DNA of 31,213 nt from Promethearchaeota archaeon (GTDB lineage Archaea > Asgardarchaeota > Lokiarchaeia > Sigyniarchaeales > SOKP01): assembly GCA_048941015.1 (NCBI GenBank), contig JBHLNZ010000036.1, positions 1-31,213 of the forward strand. The letters run 5' to 3'. The stretch's first letter is position 1. Each line of letters begins with the position of its first letter. Under the pieces are notes generated by a model that made no database searches, was not told the origin of the DNA, and worked only from the letters and a program-made list of their open reading frames with translations. Made by a program: the position numbers and the translations under genes. Positions 8,492 to 14,722 of this stretch are shown here, piece by piece.

Positions 8492-10444
8492 TTATAACTC
8501 TTTTATAGATTTAAATAATTCTGAGAATTCTGAATCTTTCTTATAAAATATAGGTGGTTTACCGATAGGAGCATTAACCGTTCTCCATCCTCCAGTATAA
8601 ACATTCCCTGACCAAATATGAACCCAATCATCTTTAGGTAAAAAAACTTCCCATTGATCCATATTTGGTTTAATAACTGGAGCTATAAGTAGGTCGCGTC
8701 CAAATAGATATTGATACTTAATATTATATAATTCTGGATCATTTTCATAATGCAAAAAGCATCCTCTTATTGGTGGAATTCCATCTTCTTGGTAAGTTTT
8801 AGATAAATGAATCAAGTAGGGTTTAAGATGTAAATGAATCTTTACCATCTTTGATAAATGAATTAATGTTTCCTCATCAGAATCAAATTGCCAATTTACA
8901 TCAGGTCTATTCCCTTCATGAGTACGCATTAACATTGAAAATGTTGCCATCTCTGCAGAACGCATAAACAGTTCTTTCTCTCGTTTAAACTTTCCAGAAG
9001 TTGTATAACATCCGATATCAAAATGATAATAACCTATGCCACATAAGCCGATATTAATTGCTCCCGGAATAACTGAAGGAAGCCCTAATCTTTCATCCCA
9101 ATCAACACGCTGATCCCCTGAAAATTGCATAATAGCATATTTTGATGTTCCAGTAAATCCAGAACGTGCGAAAAAGATTACTTCACCAAGTAAATTTTCT
9201 TCCTTAATTGCATCATAATTGACTTTAGTCCAAGGAGTGGGAGATAAATTATGAAATTCTTCTCCTGAAATACCTGAAAAAAATGTTGCATCTGTTGGAA
9301 CATATTCTCCATAATCAACCATCCATCCTCCAAGACCTATTCCAATCATGTTTTTCTTAATCACAGATTTAATCCATTCAATAGCTTTAGGATTTGAAAA
9401 ATCTATCTGTGAAGCTAGAAAATCAGTCATCATTACAAGATAATCTTCACCTTCACGATTCTTAATACAATAGCCTTTATCTGAAGCCTCTTTATAAAGA
9501 TCTCCTTCAAGAGCAAGCATAGTGTTTATGTATCCTAAAAACTTAATGCCTTTATTATTCAATTCTTTAATATAATCTGGAAGGTTAGGGTAAATTTCTT
9601 CATCATATTTCCAATCCCAGAATAATTGTTTCCCAAAAGAGGTATATCTAATCCCCTGCCAATCTTGACACCATACTGCAGTAACTTTAATTCCATGTGC
9701 TAATGCTTTATCAATTTTTTCATCGACAATTTCAGGTCCTCCTTGGATTCCTAACCAAATTCCATCCAATGTCCATTCTGGCAACTTTGGTTGCAAACCA
9801 AGAAATTTATTTAGCTCTTTAACAACTTGAAGAAGTGTATCGTACTTTCCTATATATATCTCTTCTGGAATATTCCAAAGATACAATTCATGAAAACTTT
9901 CATTTTCAAAATTAAATTTTGAATAATGACTGCTTTCAACATGACAAAAATAATTATTAGTTGAAATGAAATTAGGTTGTGGATAATAAGTATGTTCTGA
10001 TCTAGAAAGTGGGCTAGCGTCTTCAACCCATATAGGTACCTTTTGTCCTCTCAAATTCAACTCTGAGAATTGTTCACCACATCCAAAAATAGCTTCATCT
10101 TCATCAGCCACTACTTTTATCCATAATCGATTAACTGAAGGATTATCACACTTAAATGAGATTAAAAGTTTTTCGTTCTTAATAAAAAACTCTACAACTA
10201 AACTTGTATTATTGAACTCAAATTCAAGAATAACTTGGTTATGAGTTTCAGAGAGCAATTTGTAATCCTTGAATTTAAATCTTTTCTGAATCTTTTCACT
10301 TATTCTAAAGCTATTATGATTTTGTTTGAATTTCCCAATCCCAATTCCTATCTCAAAACAAGGCTTTTTTGAAGAGTGAGAAAAAAAATTATAGTCATTA
10401 AAGTAGAGATTAAACCCTTCAGTATTTTGTTCGTATTTTATCAT
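8492..10444 (-). CDS. yihQ: GH31 glycosidase, YihQ/sulfoquinovosidase subfamily
   Basis: Motifs GCGEQFS.LNLRG, TYYPQP.F, LGIQGG, WCQDWQGIRYTSFGKQLFWDW, nucleophile GWMVDYGEY, acid/base SGDQRVDW, HFDIGCYT, MRTHEGNRP and QYLFGRDLLIAPV follow E. coli YihQ as recalled. Start moved from TTG 10459 to ATG 10444, which overlaps the upstream stop (ATGA) and follows GGAAGGT. Confidence 0.85.
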   Translation of the reverse strand: MIKYEQNTEGFNLYFNDYNFFSHSSKKPCFEIGIGIGKFKQNHNSFRISEKIQKRFKFKDYKLLSETHNQVILEFEFNNTSLVVEFFIKNEKLLISFKCDNPSVNRLWIKVVADEDEAIFGCGEQFSELNLRGQKVPIWVEDASPLSRSEHTYYPQPNFISTNNYFCHVESSHYSKFNFENESFHELYLWNIPEEIYIGKYDTLLQVVKELNKFLGLQPKLPEWTLDGIWLGIQGGPEIVDEKIDKALAHGIKVTAVWCQDWQGIRYTSFGKQLFWDWKYDEEIYPNLPDYIKELNNKGIKFLGYINTMLALEGDLYKEASDKGYCIKNREGEDYLVMMTDFLASQIDFSNPKAIEWIKSVIKKNMIGIGLGGWMVDYGEYVPTDATFFSGISGEEFHNLSPTPWTKVNYDAIKEENLLGEVIFFARSGFTGTSKYAIMQFSGDQRVDWDERLGLPSVIPGAINIGLCGIGYYHFDIGCYTTSGKFKREKELFMRSAEMATFSMLMRTHEGNRPDVNWQFDSDEETLIHLSKMVKIHLHLKPYLIHLSKTYQEDGIPPIRGCFLHYENDPELYNIKYQYLFGRDLLIAPVIKPNMDQWEVFLPKDDWVHIWSGNVYTGGWRTVNAPIGKPPIFYKKDSEFSELFKSIKEL

Positions 10445-11757
10445 TTTATTACCTTCCAACCTTTTATTTTAGCAAAAATCTCGAATGGTTTTATATAATC
10501 TCCATATACCACTGAGATATGATGGGCAATTCCATTTTGAATTATTTTATCCAATACAATTCTTATATTATCTTTAAATACAGTTTTTAGATAAGTTCCT
10601 TTAAGTTCTTTATCCATTGGAATTCCCTCTCCTTTTTGTAGGAAAATTCTATACTCTCCGGGAGCGTAATCAATTCTCAATAAGGAAATCTCACCTGGCT
10701 TCATAACAAAATCTGCTGTAACCCCTTTTCCTTCAGCAAAATAAGAATCCAATGATCTTACACACTTTTCATCCCATAAATCACAAGCAGCGACTCCACA
10801 GTGCCATAATAGCCCAAAACTTTCTTCGAAGTTTATCTGAGAAAAATCAGCTAGAAATGGGCTTCTTGCGCCTATTGCTTTATGCGCTAACATGGATAAA
10901 CTACCTAAAATATCTCCTTCACAAGTTAAGATTTTATCTTCTGCTTGTAATATTGACATTGCAGCACATGGTGAGATCCCAAAATCTGTAGCAAATTCTG
11001 GCCAACATCTAATCGCAATAGCATCTAAATTATGATCTCGTATAAATCTGTCAAATTTAGTTGTAAGTAAAGCTACTTTTTCTAATTGTTGGTTTGTTAT
11101 TCCTGATATATCAAAAAGAGATTTAATTTGTTGTTTTCTTTCGTTGATCTCATTATCACTTACTTCAAGGTTAAAAATTTCTCTTAATTCGAAATGATCC
11201 GCTAAAATTCCGATTTCTCTATATAAATCCAGCTCATCATAATCTAAGTTGAAAAATCCTTTCGCTCGATATCCAATAATGCCAATATGAGAAGATTTAA
11301 ATGATTTGAGTATTCTAATGGCATCTAACCAATCTAAATCTATTTCATCACCTATTACAATATGATAATTCTTTACACCAGCCTTATATAGATTACTCGC
11401 ATTTAGATTTATTCCACAAACAGAATTTAAGCGAATTTTACCTCCATCATAGGGTAATTCTTCTAATCCCCATAATAAAATTGGGCAACAAAGGACTTTA
11501 TATAATTCCAAAATTAAATGCCCAAGAGCAAAAGTTCCGCTAATACATACTAATCCATCAATCTGCTTCTCTACCAAAAGATTTGCCGCTTTTTGGGCGT
11601 CTTCGATTTCGATAATCAAATCCTCATTAATTATATATTCAATATCTTCTATTTTTTTAAGTTTTTCTTGTATTTTCTTATATATCTCTTCCGCTGCGAT
11701 ATAATCGAACGTTTTTCGAGCTAGACAGACTAAACCAATTTTTATAAATTGCTTCAG
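10441..11757 (-). CDS. L-fucose/L-arabinose isomerase-family protein, putative sulfoquinovose isomerase (SqvD/SftI-like), 438 aa
   Basis: Motifs RLNSVCG, AIRCWPEF, TCEGD (metal Glu), FLAD, WHCG and GIAHH. Frame extends 46 codons beyond the ORF call to a CTG at 11757, directly after an in-frame TAG and 5 nt after GGTGA, adding KQFIKIGLVCLARKTFD. Confidence 0.82.
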   Translation of the reverse strand: MKQFIKIGLVCLARKTFDYIAAEEIYKKIQEKLKKIEDIEYIINEDLIIEIEDAQKAANLLVEKQIDGLVCISGTFALGHLILELYKVLCCPILLWGLEELPYDGGKIRLNSVCGINLNASNLYKAGVKNYHIVIGDEIDLDWLDAIRILKSFKSSHIGIIGYRAKGFFNLDYDELDLYREIGILADHFELREIFNLEVSDNEINERKQQIKSLFDISGITNQQLEKVALLTTKFDRFIRDHNLDAIAIRCWPEFATDFGISPCAAMSILQAEDKILTCEGDILGSLSMLAHKAIGARSPFLADFSQINFEESFGLLWHCGVAACDLWDEKCVRSLDSYFAEGKGVTADFVMKPGEISLLRIDYAPGEYRIFLQKGEGIPMDKELKGTYLKTVFKDNIRIVLDKIIQNGIAHHISVVYGDYIKPFEIFAKIKGWKVIK

Positions 11758-11836
11758 CTAATTCACCATACTTGTTAATAATAAATAGTAATAATTAAAA
11801 AGCTATAAAGATTGTAAATATGGAAAGAAGTATTAG

Positions 11837-12889
11837 CTAAAATGAAAATATTTGAAGTAATCTAAAATTACCTACTAATGCTATTAATATCCCAAAAGCT
11901 ATTGAGAACAAGAATAGGTAAAAAGCAAAAACAGCTATTTTTATATGGAGTTTCCTTTTTTTTTCGTCTTTCGAAAATCTTTTTATTCCAAATATTGAAC
12001 CTACTAGTATAAAAATCATAGTTATCAACCCTGCTATTCCATGTAAAGAGTAAAATATGCTACCTCTAAGTAAAAAAGTTGAAATGCTCCAATAAGTAAA
12101 TGAAGTTAAAGAAAAAATAGCAAATAGTGTTGAGGTTAAAATATGGAAACGAAGTGATATATATCTGGGTAATTCCTTAAATTTAGTTGGTTTAGGTCCA
12201 AATTTTTGGCCAGAAATAAATGCTAATCCTCCAAACACAAAAGTAATACTAAATAAATACGCATGAGTAATCCATGATGAAAAATTAGTTCTCATTGCTT
12301 GATCGCTCCATCCTCTCTCTTCCCAAAATCCTATATAATCATAATTAACAAGTTCAATTTTCACAATCCATTTTACCCACTTATATCCATAATGGTCGGG
12401 AGCTACTAATCGAATGGGAAATCCATGTTTAGCTGGTAGGACTTCTCCATTCATCTTAAAAGCTAGTAAGATATTATTAGCAAATGCTTCTTTTACTGTT
12501 AATGAATCACTATAACTATCTTCTGCATAAAAAACAACATCATAAGCACTAGAATTCACTCCTGCCATGGATAATATATCTCTTAATGGAATACCTTCCC
12601 ATTCTGCTGTGCCAGACACGCCTTCTACACATGCTAAAGTTGCTATTTCTTTTTTTGAATCCAAACTTGTAAAGTTTGCATAGTCAAACATTAATTCTTG
12701 GTTTACATTACCAGTAACTTCTAATTTCCACTCACTTTCATTAATCAATGGAATTTCACCTTTTTGCAATACAAAAAATAGATCATTAGGAGTAATTATA
12801 TACCTTGAGAGATGAAAAGCGGAAACTATAATTAAAGGTGTACCTAATAAAAGAATCAAACCAATAAAATAGAGATTATTTCTCTTCAT
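11837..12889 (-). CDS. Sulfite-oxidase-family molybdopterin oxidoreductase (YedY/MsrP/YuiH-like) fused to a C-terminal 4-TM His-containing cytochrome-b-like domain
   Basis: N-terminal hydrophobic anchor, WKLEVTG.V, Mo-ligand Cys in TLACVEG, AEWEGIPL, MNGEVLP..HGFPIRLVAP..YGYKWVKW and GFWEERGW. Then four TM helices each with a His (ITHAY, RFHIL, SLHGI, KLHIK). Confidence 0.88.
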   Translation of the reverse strand: MKRNNLYFIGLILLLGTPLIIVSAFHLSRYIITPNDLFFVLQKGEIPLINESEWKLEVTGNVNQELMFDYANFTSLDSKKEIATLACVEGVSGTAEWEGIPLRDILSMAGVNSSAYDVVFYAEDSYSDSLTVKEAFANNILLAFKMNGEVLPAKHGFPIRLVAPDHYGYKWVKWIVKIELVNYDYIGFWEERGWSDQAMRTNFSSWITHAYLFSITFVFGGLAFISGQKFGPKPTKFKELPRYISLRFHILTSTLFAIFSLTSFTYWSISTFLLRGSIFYSLHGIAGLITMIFILVGSIFGIKRFSKDEKKRKLHIKIAVFAFYLFLFSIAFGILIALVGNFRLLQIFSF

Positions 12890-13006
12890 TCTTGTACTAA
12901 TAAGAAATAGGATTATTTAAAACACATTTTTATATTTATTAAGAACCACGTTAAAAAAGATCATAATAAATTTAGCAAATTCTTAAAAATAAGAGAATTA
13001 ATTTTT

Positions 13007-13675
13007 CTATGGAGAACCTAATTCCGTCTCATCCCAAGCTTCTTGAAACATTTTTAACCCTTTATCGGTGAATGGATGTTCAAAACTATCTCGATATACT
13101 TGAAATCCTGCCGTGACGATATCTGCACCCATAATTGCTGCCTCAACTATTTGTTTAGCATTTCTCAATGCAGCAACAATTATTTCAGTTTGAAAGTCAT
13201 AATTTCGATAAATTGTAATTATATCTGATAATAACTGAGTGCAATCAACTCCCGTAGCTTCTTGCCATCCAATGAATGGAGAACAATATGTCGTTCCGAT
13301 TCGACCTACTTGAAGCGCTTGAGATGCAGTAAAAACAAGCGTTACATTAACCTTGATTCCATCATCGATCAAACTTTTAGCAGCAATTAAACCTTGTTCA
13401 TTACAAGGAATCTTAATTACAAAATTTTCTGATAATATTGCTAAATTTTTTGCTTGCTGGATCATATCTTCAGCTTTTTTCAGGTGAGGATTAATCTCAA
13501 CTGAAATTGGAAATTTAATTGATTTAAATTCTTCCGCTAATTCCTTAATAACCTTATTGAAAGGTTTTCCTGAACTTTTAATATGTTTTGGATTCGAAGT
13601 AACACCATCAATCTTCCAGTTCTTAATTGCATATTTTATTTCATCAATCTTAGCACTATCTAGGAAATATTTCAC
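13007..13675 (-). CDS. Transaldolase (small FSA/TalC type), 6-deoxy-6-sulfofructose transaldolase (SqvA/SftT)-like
   Basis: GTG start. D6, DGVTSNP, E60, Schiff-base K88 (VIKIP), NVTLVF and F134. SPFIGW (W137, where F6P enzymes have Arg) and AALRN are the sulfo-type signatures. Confidence 0.85.
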   Translation of the reverse strand: MKYFLDSAKIDEIKYAIKNWKIDGVTSNPKHIKSSGKPFNKVIKELAEEFKSIKFPISVEINPHLKKAEDMIQQAKNLAILSENFVIKIPCNEQGLIAAKSLIDDGIKVNVTLVFTASQALQVGRIGTTYCSPFIGWQEATGVDCTQLLSDIITIYRNYDFQTEIIVAALRNAKQIVEAAIMGADIVTAGFQVYRDSFEHPFTDKGLKMFQEAWDETELGSP

Positions 13676-13768: not shown

Positions 13769-14722
13769 TTATGGTTTTTTATTTAAATTTTCCATAAAAA
13801 TAGCAGCATCTTTTAATGTTAGAGCCAAACCTTCCATCAATTTAACATATCTATCACTAATATAGATTTTGCCTTCGAAAAATCCCTTTTCACTCTTTTT
13901 TTTAATCTCCTCAATATTTAGAATCACCGATTTAGAAAGTTTTATACCTAAGGATTCTAATATAATCTCATCTTTGTTATTATTAAGAGCCTTATTAGAT
14001 ATTTTTGAAAATATCCAACGCGGACCTGTGCTATATTGTACTTTAGGAGGCTCTATTCTAACATCAATTATACTTATTATGCTTTTTATCAATTCCAGGA
14101 GGTATTTAAAACCCAAATTTATACTTATTTCAGGAGAAAAGTCAATTATTAATATTAATTTTATATTTTCAAGAATTATGAACTCTGAAAGAATCTTTTG
14201 GTTATCATCTAATATGAAAATAATATTTTTTATATTTTCGATATAACTTTTATTTAATTCGAGTTCTCCAAGAAATTTAACATAAATTTCGTTCGATAAG
14301 GAAGAGTATAATAATAAACCATCAGATGTGATCAAAGCTCCTCCTAAAACCTCTTTTTTTTGAAAAATTTCTCGGATATATTTTATTATTTTCTTTATGA
14401 TTATAGAAGATTCATAGGTTATGATTCCAAATTCTTCTTCTTGATCATCAAATAAAATGTTTGAGTCTTCACTAGAGAACTCAATATGAGTTATTTCAAA
14501 ATCTACTACTTGATAACCACGTATATCAAAGTGGGAATCCATAAACAATTGAAAGCTATGTTCGCAGATGTAATTTGAAGGAATTCCAATTGTGGTTAAG
14601 CTACCGCTCTGATTTATAAGTTTATATGGAATATTTATAAATTGGATGGTTTTACATTGCGGACATTCTATTCTTATTTTTTTAAATTGATTATCTTTTA
14701 ATTTGTTATTTTTTACAACCAT
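13769..14722 (-). CDS. Zn-ribbon plus roadblock/longin-like domain protein (Asgard-type)
   Basis: CPQC...CEH.F..FMD..F.IRGYQ.VD N-terminal module, acidic linker, then VLGGALITSDGLLLYSSL (roadblock/MglB-like beta hairpin) and an unknown C-terminal domain. Confidence 0.7.
   Translation of the reverse strand: MVVKNNKLKDNQFKKIRIECPQCKTIQFINIPYKLINQSGSLTTIGIPSNYICEHSFQLFMDSHFDIRGYQVVDFEITHIEFSSEDSNILFDDQEEEFGIITYESSIIIKKIIKYIREIFQKKEVLGGALITSDGLLLYSSLSNEIYVKFLGELELNKSYIENIKNIIFILDDNQKILSEFIILENIKLILIIDFSPEISINLGFKYLLELIKSIISIIDVRIEPPKVQYSTGPRWIFSKISNKALNNNKDEIILESLGIKLSKSVILNIEEIKKKSEKGFFEGKIYISDRYVKLMEGLALTLKDAAIFMENLNKKP

Follow-up and report, generated by a model that had tools for sequence, protein, structure and literature searches.

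The question raised by this locus is whether a membrane-anchored redox protein that is encoded in the middle of a gene cluster of the sulfoquinovose (SQ) breakdown type has a part in that pathway. The locus lies on contig JBHLNZ010000036.1 of a Promethearchaeota archaeon (assembly GCA_048941015.1), and we refer to the whole stretch of 31,213 nucleotides that was analysed as the window. The gene in question, located between an isomerase and a transaldolase gene, encodes a fusion protein in which a transmembrane (TM) anchor is followed by a domain of the sulfite oxidase (SUOX) fold, predicted to bind a molybdenum cofactor (Moco), and by a four-helix membrane domain resembling cytochrome b561 (Table 1). 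An earlier note made from the sequence alone had proposed that the fusion oxidises sulfite or another sulfur product of SQ breakdown and thereby defines a new variant of the pathway, with an unrelated insertion as the fallback. We found that the orthologs are generally unlinked to SQ genes, which makes the fallback the better reading: very probably the fusion came into the SQ cluster by a lineage-specific insertion. For the function of the protein we give a little better than an even chance to an outward electron shuttle like that of MsrP and MsrQ (MsrPQ), in which the membrane domain would feed a YedY-like reductase, a reading drawn from the sequence and the predicted structure.

Profile searches resolved two domains behind the N-terminal anchor. 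PF00174 (Oxidored_molyb) matched with an E-value of 1.8e-40 and 138.8 bits against a cut-off of 24, and PF13301 (DUF4079) matched the C-terminal part with 33.9 bits, just over its cut-off of 31.4. An AlphaFold2 (AF2) model computed from 42 homologs reached a mean predicted local distance difference test score (pLDDT) of 84.4 and a predicted template modelling score (pTM) of 0.72. The model displays an N-terminal helix across residues 3-27 (pLDDT above 90), then a beta-rich domain, and then four long helices at residues 207-229, 246-275, 282-300 and 309-348. Each conserved His is placed at the start of its helix, and the same placement was obtained when the C-terminal domain was modelled alone. 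The anchor, the Mo domain with its Cys ligand and the four-helix domain with one His per helix had all been read from the sequence before, and each of them was recovered here; on one chain they agree with the self-contained membrane-coupled redox module that the earlier note had described. The gene is present as a single copy in its genome. The order isomerase, fusion, transaldolase is not an assembly artefact, because contigs of two separate studies bridge both junctions and thus all three genes (X1 record 6 corresponds to 11717-13339 and X5 record 13 to 11321-13289).

In a search of 5.8 billion proteins we obtained about 55 full-length homologs, which are 320-357 amino acids long and have 43-99% identity. 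All named ones come from metagenome-assembled genomes of Asgard archaea (Hod-, Loki-, Thor-, Odin- and Promethearchaeota), and the next matches below them are stand-alone Mo domains of about 200 amino acids. Full-length copies occur in 36 of the 301 sampled Asgard genomes (the carriers), across at least five families, and four genomes have two copies. Residue conservation was determined in an alignment of 42 fusions (A1) and in a second set of 36 genome-derived sequences (A2). Cys87 is kept in 41 of the 42 fusions as part of a C-V-(E/D)-G motif (V 42/42, E/D 40/42, G 41/42). G168, Y169, K170, W171 and W174 are present in all 42 fusions and K173 in 39; the segment of SUOX enzymes that corresponds to this G-Y-K-W...K-W stretch contacts the molybdopterin phosphate, and the stretch may do so here as well. 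Of the four His residues, H209, H249 and H283 show no variation among the fusions and H315 is present in all but one of the 42, while all four are invariant in the genome-derived set. A look-up in the Atlas also pointed to possible look-alike clusters with Mo and DUF4079 domains in Thermoplasmatota and Methanobacteriota, which we regard as a lead only.

The surroundings of the fusion gene are of the SQ type. For the GH31 neighbour the YihQ model PRK10426 gave 778.6 bits, over its cut-off of 553, and a comparison with the E. coli YihQ chain 5aed gave 652 bits; the isomerase had SftI as its best NCBIfam match, below the cut-off of that model, and the third neighbour is a transaldolase of the FSA/TalC type. 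The embedding in a sulfosugar cluster thus holds, but the frame of reference that came with it, the Bacillus clusters of the transaldolase-dependent route (sulfo-TAL), is the wrong one for an Asgard archaeon. The gap of 117 bp to the transaldolase gene (12890-13006) was also confirmed. The 79 bp given for the gap to the isomerase gene hold only with a CTG start near 11757; with the first canonical isomerase start (TTG at 11619) the gap is 217 bp.

In order to compare fusion neighbourhoods we searched about 9.5 kb on each side of 39 homolog loci with all window proteins. GH31, SftI-like and transaldolase genes were found near a single one of these loci (L031), which belongs to a sister species (G065), is fully syntenic and carries a fusion with 77% identity. 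At the other 38 loci no SQ genes were present within this distance. Isomerase orthologs with 65-85% identity were found in 18 of the 301 Asgard genomes, and five genomes have both genes, corresponding to 5 of the 36 carriers and 5 of the 18 SQ genomes. For genus g1 the overlap of five genomes compares with 4.3 expected by chance, and in three of the five genomes with both (G113, G174 and G104) the SQ cluster and the fusion are on different contigs. The co-occurrence with sulfo-TAL genes that the earlier note had put forward as a check was thus not borne out. From the side of the pathway the picture is the same: the fusion is absent from 14 of 16 SQ clusters fetched from relatives, and in six of the 16 the transaldolase gene directly adjoins the isomerase gene with 170-240 bp between them. 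In G264 and G104 the slot holds a YihU-like reductase (L102:10597-11505 and L112:2412-3293), a beta-hydroxyacid dehydrogenase composed of NAD_binding_2 and NAD_binding_11 with sulfolactaldehyde 3-reductase among its NCBIfam matches, and in G183 it holds an auxin-efflux-carrier (AEC)-type transporter (L109:11014-11940). The fusion gene would then have entered the cluster, between isomerase and transaldolase, in an ancestor shared by the window species and the one sister species, G065.

The Mo domain was examined for features of a sulfite oxidase or a reductase. All NCBIfam scores remained below the respective cut-offs: 104 against 600 for SorA, 80 against 207 for MsrP, 79 against 420 for SoxC and 37 against 570 for SorT. 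In the Foldseek comparison YedY (1xdy, 1.4e-13) was the top match, about equal to SorA (2blf, 2.2e-13), and chains of PruR were among the structural matches. Cys87 aligns with the Mo-ligand Cys of SorA in the PDB profile search and with the Cys of RCVEAW in a BLAST alignment with E. coli MsrP (26% identity), where no gap follows the Cys. For the pocket we compared the anion-binding residues R55, R109 and Y236 of SorA (R138, R190 and Y322 of chicken sulfite oxidase), with the positions of R55 and H57 located from the wild-type and the R55M/H57A chains. In the profile alignment R55 has no counterpart in the fusion, as it falls in a gap and is an insertion relative to the fusion family. The column opposite H57 is variable, the fusion lacks the SorA loop CSGNSRGFVEPRVGGGQLANG with R109 through a deletion, and Y236 aligns with the nearly invariant W194. 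The residue after the ligand Cys is acidic in 40 of 42 fusions. The Mo-co dimerisation domain PF03404 had no match in the protein, and TM helix 1 begins at residue 207, directly after the Mo domain. On three counts, namely the equivalog cut-offs, the dimerisation domain and the anion-binding residues, an identity as sulfite dehydrogenase or oxidase is not supported.

In a maximum-likelihood tree of Mo domains the fusions group neither with the SoxC/SDH clade nor with E. coli MsrP; close to them are small cytoplasmic paralogs of Asgard archaea and proteins of 344-420 amino acids from actinobacteria and haloarchaea. The base of the fusion clade is poorly supported (66/86) and E. coli MsrP is a long branch; we claim neither a sister group nor a donor. 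Because of the residue comparison, the Foldseek result and the tree we regard the Mo domain, as judged by alignment, as a separate SUOX-fold lineage with a YedY-like ligand loop and a pocket without sulfite-binding features. The proposed oxidation of sulfite or another sulfur product in a new pathway variant is therefore not supported, with one of 39 loci linked, the substrate residues of SorA missing and no dimerisation domain; what is retained of the original interpretation is the architecture of the redox module and the insertion fallback. The result is a correction, and the fusion gene should not serve as the basis for a branch of sulfoglycolysis that oxidises sulfite.

SUOX-fold paralogs of at least three further classes are present in Asgard genomes (L118-L132). 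Members of one class have about 197 amino acids and no TM segment, those of another have about 265-282 amino acids with one or two hydrophobic segments and group with E. coli MsrP in the tree, and those of the last have about 330 amino acids with one TM segment and a C-terminal extension and sometimes occur in tandem (L131). A split form of the fusion would be expected to have a b561-like gene beside the Mo-domain gene, and none was detected with the A2 profile beside 15 Mo-domain-only Asgard paralogs.

Folded alone with 36 sequences, the C-terminal domain reached a pLDDT of 84.6 and a pTM of 0.81. Its best natural match was the plant cytochrome b561 4o6y (Foldseek TMq 0.66, probability 1.00, 18% identity), with all Foldseek E-values above 0.06. 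The topology check by AlphaFold and Foldseek that had been suggested thus returned an anchor, a Mo domain and a four-helix bundle, with b561 and Dcytb as the best natural matches of the latter. In the structural alignment helices 1-4 map onto chain residues 33-194 of cytochrome b561, which we take to be the four haem-binding helices of that protein. By sequence the C-terminal domain had no match in the PDB. A profile search of 1.84 billion representative proteins gave 50 relatives of the domain, mostly fusions of 340-350 amino acids, together with a few stand-alone relatives of 160-190 amino acids, two of which (P0163 and P0140) pass the PF03188 cut-off. Given the predicted fold together with the four His residues in register, the most economical reading is a di-haem domain of the b561 type.

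The basic residues are distributed very unevenly across the membrane. Averaged over 42 homologs we counted 2.0 Lys and Arg (K+R) in the N-terminal tail, 4.4 in loop 1-2 and 5.6 in loop 3-4, all on the proposed cytoplasmic side, and 0.0 in loop 2-3 and 0.7 in the C-terminal tail on the opposite side. The Mo domain is net acidic with 22 D+E against 11 K+R. The positive-inside rule predicts an outward position for the Mo domain, H209 and H283 and a cytoplasmic one for H249, H315 and the basic loops. The predicted orientation of the bundle is that of b561.

Among known systems MsrP/MsrQ (YedY/YedZ) is, by analogy, the closest functional analogue, as there too a SUOX-fold Moco unit on the outer side is fed by a membrane haem b protein. 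MsrP also resembles the fusion in the Cys ligand within C-V-E (CVEAW in MsrP, CVEG in the fusion), in the equal length of the loop after the Cys, in its rank as top structural match (YedY) and in having no dimerisation domain. The differences are nevertheless considerable. The fusion is one polypeptide whereas MsrP and MsrQ are two, its haem domain is a DUF4079/b561-like unit with four TM helices whereas MsrQ is a ferric-reductase-type flavocytochrome with six, and it lacks a Tat signal whereas MsrP is exported by the twin-arginine translocation (Tat) system. To the low identity and the NCBIfam score far from the cut-off (26%, 80 against 207) we can add that E. coli MsrP groups in the tree with other Asgard paralogs (265-282 amino acids) and not with the fusion clade.

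A single-chain arrangement is known from the Sco3746 family, whose members begin with five transmembrane domains (TMDs) that carry His ligands and end in a Moco domain; a conserved RR precedes TMD5, and these proteins require both the general secretory (Sec) and the Tat pathway (Tooke et al. 2017, PMC5449189). Like the fusion they combine a His-lined polytopic haem b domain and an outer Moco domain of the SUOX family on one chain, and the earlier statement that catalytic and haem partners are separate subunits was too strong in this respect. Three sequence relatives of the Mo domain (P0109, P0113 and P0120) have the Sco3746 layout and lie near the Asgard clade in the tree, with weak basal support. 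However, the order is reversed, with five TMDs, RR and Moco domain in Sco3746 and the TM anchor, Moco domain and four TMDs in the fusion, and the conserved twin-arginine motif of Sco3746 contrasts with a fusion that has no RR and comes from genomes without TatC. On sequence grounds the fusion is thus best described as a reversed-order relative of known single-chain haem b-Moco proteins with a b561/DUF4079-type bundle and no RR.

By sequence and predicted structure the bundle shares with cytochrome b561 and Dcytb (4o6y, 5zlg) the four-helix core, the one His per helix in two pairs and the basic cytoplasmic face. It differs from them in consisting of only the four core helices plus the N-terminal anchor, and in being joined to a Moco domain, whereas b561 and Dcytb reduce a free luminal acceptor. 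SorAB, SoxCD and the sulfite oxidases have the SUOX fold, the Cys ligand and the highest sequence scores in common with the fusion, but its scores are far below the sulfite-oxidase equivalog cut-offs of 420-600 bits, and its partner is a b-type membrane bundle where these enzymes use a c-type cytochrome or b5. PruR is a Sec-exported protein of the SUOX fold that binds pterins in the periplasm (PMC11194511). It would resemble the fusion as a small SUOX fold that is exported without Tat and acquires its ligand outside the cytoplasm, and differs from it in having no Cys and a truncated cleft and in being a soluble regulatory protein without a haem domain (PMC11194511).

In the mechanism that we propose, the N-terminal TM helix and the C-terminal four-helix bundle would hold the pterin domain on the outer face of the membrane, where Cys87 would bind the Mo or W of the pterin cofactor. 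The four His residues, arranged as in b561, would bind two b-type haems, one between H209 and H283 near the catalytic domain and the other between H249 and H315 at the cytoplasmic face. Electrons from a cytoplasmic or membrane donor could then cross the membrane via the two haems to the pterin centre, which would reduce an S- or N-oxide at the cell surface, for example methionine sulfoxide in proteins. One protein would in this way perform the task of MsrP plus MsrQ, and the family, which turns up repeatedly among Asgard archaea, would be a small and as yet uncharacterised counterpart of MsrPQ on a single chain.

Several observations weigh against this mechanism. The cofactors are predictions from the sequence and the modelled structure. 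In its overall sequence score the Mo domain comes closer to SorA (104 in NCBIfam, 122 bits against PDB chains) than to MsrP (80 and 66 bits), and in the tree it is not inside the MsrP clade. The cytochrome b561 family PF03188 reached 18.5 bits on the membrane domain, under its cut-off of 23. VIA-align gave Z 12.2 over 143 residues for 4o6y and Z 11.7 for human Dcytb 5zlg, and because helical bundles easily reach such values by chance the fold evidence for a likeness to b561 is, taken alone, only moderate. The fusion gene is also co-oriented with the SQ genes, separated from them by short gaps and kept in two species, and the YihU-like reductase has no homolog in the own genome; the fusion gene may be co-transcribed with the SQ genes and have some local role.

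The remaining points of this kind concern export and cofactor supply. An outward-facing Moco domain normally requires Tat. The own genome (G000) is 95% complete, and in searches in which the controls matched it gave no match for MoaC, MoeA_N, the C-terminal domain of MoaA, TatC or ALAD/HemB. TatC was found in 19 of the 301 Asgard genomes and in none of the 68 of the family of the window, and among the carriers there was only a partial match in G184. Just two of the 42 fusion N-termini have an RR within the first 15 residues. ALAD/HemB was found in 18 of the 301 genomes, in none of the 36 carriers and in none of the 68 genomes of the family, and therefore haem would have to be scavenged or the His residues would bind something else. 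MoaC and MoeA are present in the same 10 of 36 carriers. Neither was found in G259, which is a closed genome, or in several others with a completeness rating of 100%. In the whole sample of 301, 124 genomes have MoaC and 130 have MoeA, the two being present or absent as a pair. TatC and ALAD/HemB are each concentrated in family f16 and a few others.

For the pterin pathway, the gene content of the own genome puts these absences into perspective. It has 11 loci of the aldehyde ferredoxin oxidoreductase (AOR) family (AFOR_C) and five Molybdopterin (PF00384) loci, e.g. C132:9139-10293 and C25:2394-3719, as well as one MoaB/MogA-like gene (C48:36848-37363). The lack of a pterin pathway thus concerns the genome as a whole and does not speak for a fusion without cofactor. 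The data suggest a widespread auxotrophy for the pterin cofactor, or an unrecognised pathway, in Asgard genomes, and the combination of many AOR-type and Molybdopterin genes with no recognisable MoaA, MoaC and MoeA is an oddity that reaches beyond the fusion. It raises the question of how an outward pterin domain obtains its cofactors in genomes without Tat, without haem synthesis and mostly without Moco synthesis. An outward Moco without Tat could be accounted for by a cofactor that is scavenged or loaded on the outside of the cell, by an inverted topology or by a non-canonical ligand. That the fusion is an extracytoplasmic enzyme with a pterin-bound metal and haem, inserted by Sec only and with its cofactors loaded outside or scavenged, strikes us as doubtful; if true, it would be an undescribed mode of biogenesis for a molybdo- or tungsto-enzyme. 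The question also bears on the protection or use of the cell surface in cofactor-auxotrophic, syntrophic archaea. In a literature search we found nothing on DUF4079, on Mo-b561 fusions, on SQ catabolism in Asgard archaea or on Moco auxotrophy in this group.

Four other explanations have to be weighed against the outward shuttle. It is highly improbable that the fusion oxidises sulfite or a sulfur product of SQ breakdown and passes the electrons to the membrane in a new sulfo-TAL variant. The idea draws on the position of the gene, which has the same orientation as its neighbours on either side, isomerase and transaldolase, with gaps of 117 and 79-217 bp and is kept in G065, on accessory pathway genes in the same slot of relatives (the YihU-like reductase of G264 and G104, the AEC transporter of G183), on the absence of that reductase from the own genome, and on SorA as the best NCBIfam and PDB sequence score. 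Yet the 38 of 39 homolog loci without SQ genes, the 31 of 36 carriers without the SQ isomerase and the 13 of 18 SQ genomes without the fusion all argue against it, and so do the acidic residue after the Cys, the lack of conservation of R55, R109 and Y236 of SorA and the lack of a dimerisation domain. The sulfo-TAL route, moreover, ends in sulfolactate or dihydroxypropanesulfonate (DHPS), not in sulfite, and no desulfonating enzyme was seen in the window, where no search was aimed at one. A related explanation keeps the oxidation but gives up the link to SQ: the outer domain would oxidise an extracellular substrate and the haems would carry the electrons inward, following the dehydrogenase logic of SorAB or SoxCD. 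Di-haem bundles can conduct electrons either way, and taken as a whole the sequence is closer to SorA and SoxC than to MsrP. We consider this unlikely, as the anion-binding residues of sulfite dehydrogenases are missing and an acceptor system, for example a terminal oxidase, did not come to light; cytochrome bd in particular was not found. Proteins of the b561 type are outward electron carriers in which the cytoplasmic reductant binds at the basic cytoplasmic face, and the similar face that is conserved in the fusions fits outward flow.

The other two explanations take up the cofactor problem. The protein could be no Mo and haem enzyme at all, with a SUOX fold that binds a free pterin or some other ligand from outside the cell in the manner of PruR, and a bundle that binds another metal, signals or transports. 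The lack of a Tat system and of an RR motif, the absence of HemB from the carriers and of the MoaA C-terminal domain, MoaC and MoeA from the own genome and from 26 of 36 carriers all speak for this, and PruR, a Sec-exported pterin-binding SUOX fold, is among the structural matches. But PruR has a Trp in place of the Cys and a truncated cleft (PMC11194511), whereas the fusions keep the Cys in 41 of 42 cases along with the GYKW...KW segment. Furthermore the own genome, with its 11 AOR and five Molybdopterin proteins, must obtain the pterin cofactor somehow, the fusion of genus g2 stands among genes for Moco synthesis and tungstate transport, and all four His residues are kept in the b561 register. 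We therefore rate a protein without Mo and haem as quite unlikely. An inverted topology would remove the Tat problem: the pterin domain would be cytoplasmic, where insertion of the cofactor does not depend on Tat, and the bundle would link it to the outside or to a membrane pool. Paralogs of about 197 amino acids with the SUOX fold and no TM segment indicate that cytoplasmic versions are in use in Asgard genomes. Such an inversion contradicts both the strong positive-inside signal (4.4 and 5.6 K+R would be outside and 0-0.7 inside) and the orientation from the structural alignment with b561, and we hold it to be very unlikely.

The fusion has no conserved operon partner among its homolog loci, where the commonest neighbour family occurs at seven of 40. 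The gaps upstream of the homologs are usually 100-300 bp long, which suggests that the fusion is a stand-alone gene. In the window it may have its own promoter in the 117-bp spacer, where an oligo-T run follows the stop codon of the transaldolase gene and TATA-like stretches lie 25-55 bp ahead of the ATG. The sole recurrent functional theme among the neighbours is the pterin cofactor, in genus g2, where genes of the MoaD family and of a MoaB-like type come after the fusion. In G049 MoaC lies 144 bp after the fusion and MoeA 4 kb further on, and at other g2 loci (L037, L067 and L068) a TupA-like binding protein, a permease and a WtpC-like ATPase precede the fusion, with MoaC and MoeA near. A tungstate-type transporter beside a SUOX-fold gene raises the question of W as the metal. 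If the fusion is indeed loaded outside after Sec-only insertion, these TupA/WtpC-like neighbours would fit a naturally tungsten-containing SUOX-fold enzyme. The coordinates of all features of the gene are collected in Table 1.

Table 1. Features of the fusion gene and its upstream spacer, in positions of the window
Feature	Position	Strand	Basis or remark
Whole open reading frame, 350 aa, ATG start	11837..12889	-	TM anchor + SUOX-fold Moco domain + 4-TM b561-like domain
N-terminal transmembrane helix, residues about 6-27, signal-anchor	12809..12874	-	P18 invariant, no twin-arginine motif
SUOX-fold molybdopterin-binding domain, residues 44-189	12323..12760	-	PF00174, Foldseek, invariant residues
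Cys87 codon, predicted Mo (or W) ligand, motif C-V-E/D-G	12629..12631	-	alignment with SorA and MsrP
Four-helix DUF4079 / cytochrome b561-like membrane domain, residues 206-336	11882..12274	-	PF13301, predicted fold
His209 codon, start of helix 1, Mo-domain side	12263..12265	-	invariant
His249 codon, start of helix 2, K/R-rich side (cytoplasmic by positive-inside rule)	12143..12145	-	invariant
His283 codon, start of helix 3, Mo-domain side	12041..12043	-	invariant
His315 codon, start of helix 4, K/R-rich side	11945..11947	-	41/42 homologs, 36/36 genome-derived
A+T-rich 117-bp spacer upstream of the fusion gene	12890..13006	-	sequence read directly

Some observations were made on the neighbouring genes. 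The SftI-like isomerase gene has a conserved N-terminal stretch of 46 residues (11620-11775, minus strand; KQFIKIGLVCLARKTFDY...) in frame upstream of the TTG at 11619. This stretch begins at a CTG directly after ATG GTG AAT TAG, so the gene appears either to start at a CTG near 11757 or to be truncated at its N-terminus. The ortholog in G065 also has a shortened reading frame of 356 amino acids within an open frame of 438. The GH31 protein (8492-10459, minus strand) scored 664 bits against 8r56 and is, by sequence, a close relative of sulfoquinovosidases; its motif FGKQLFWDW has a Gln where 8r56 has the Arg of FGK(R/Q)L.W. Beside the transaldolase gene there is an open reading frame of 317 amino acids (13769-14722, minus strand) with no Pfam or NCBIfam family and an N-terminal CxxC...C.H motif resembling a zinc ribbon. 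It is kept in G065 with 79% identity, and distant homologs (36-41%) are present at L107 and at the g2 loci L037, L067 and L068.

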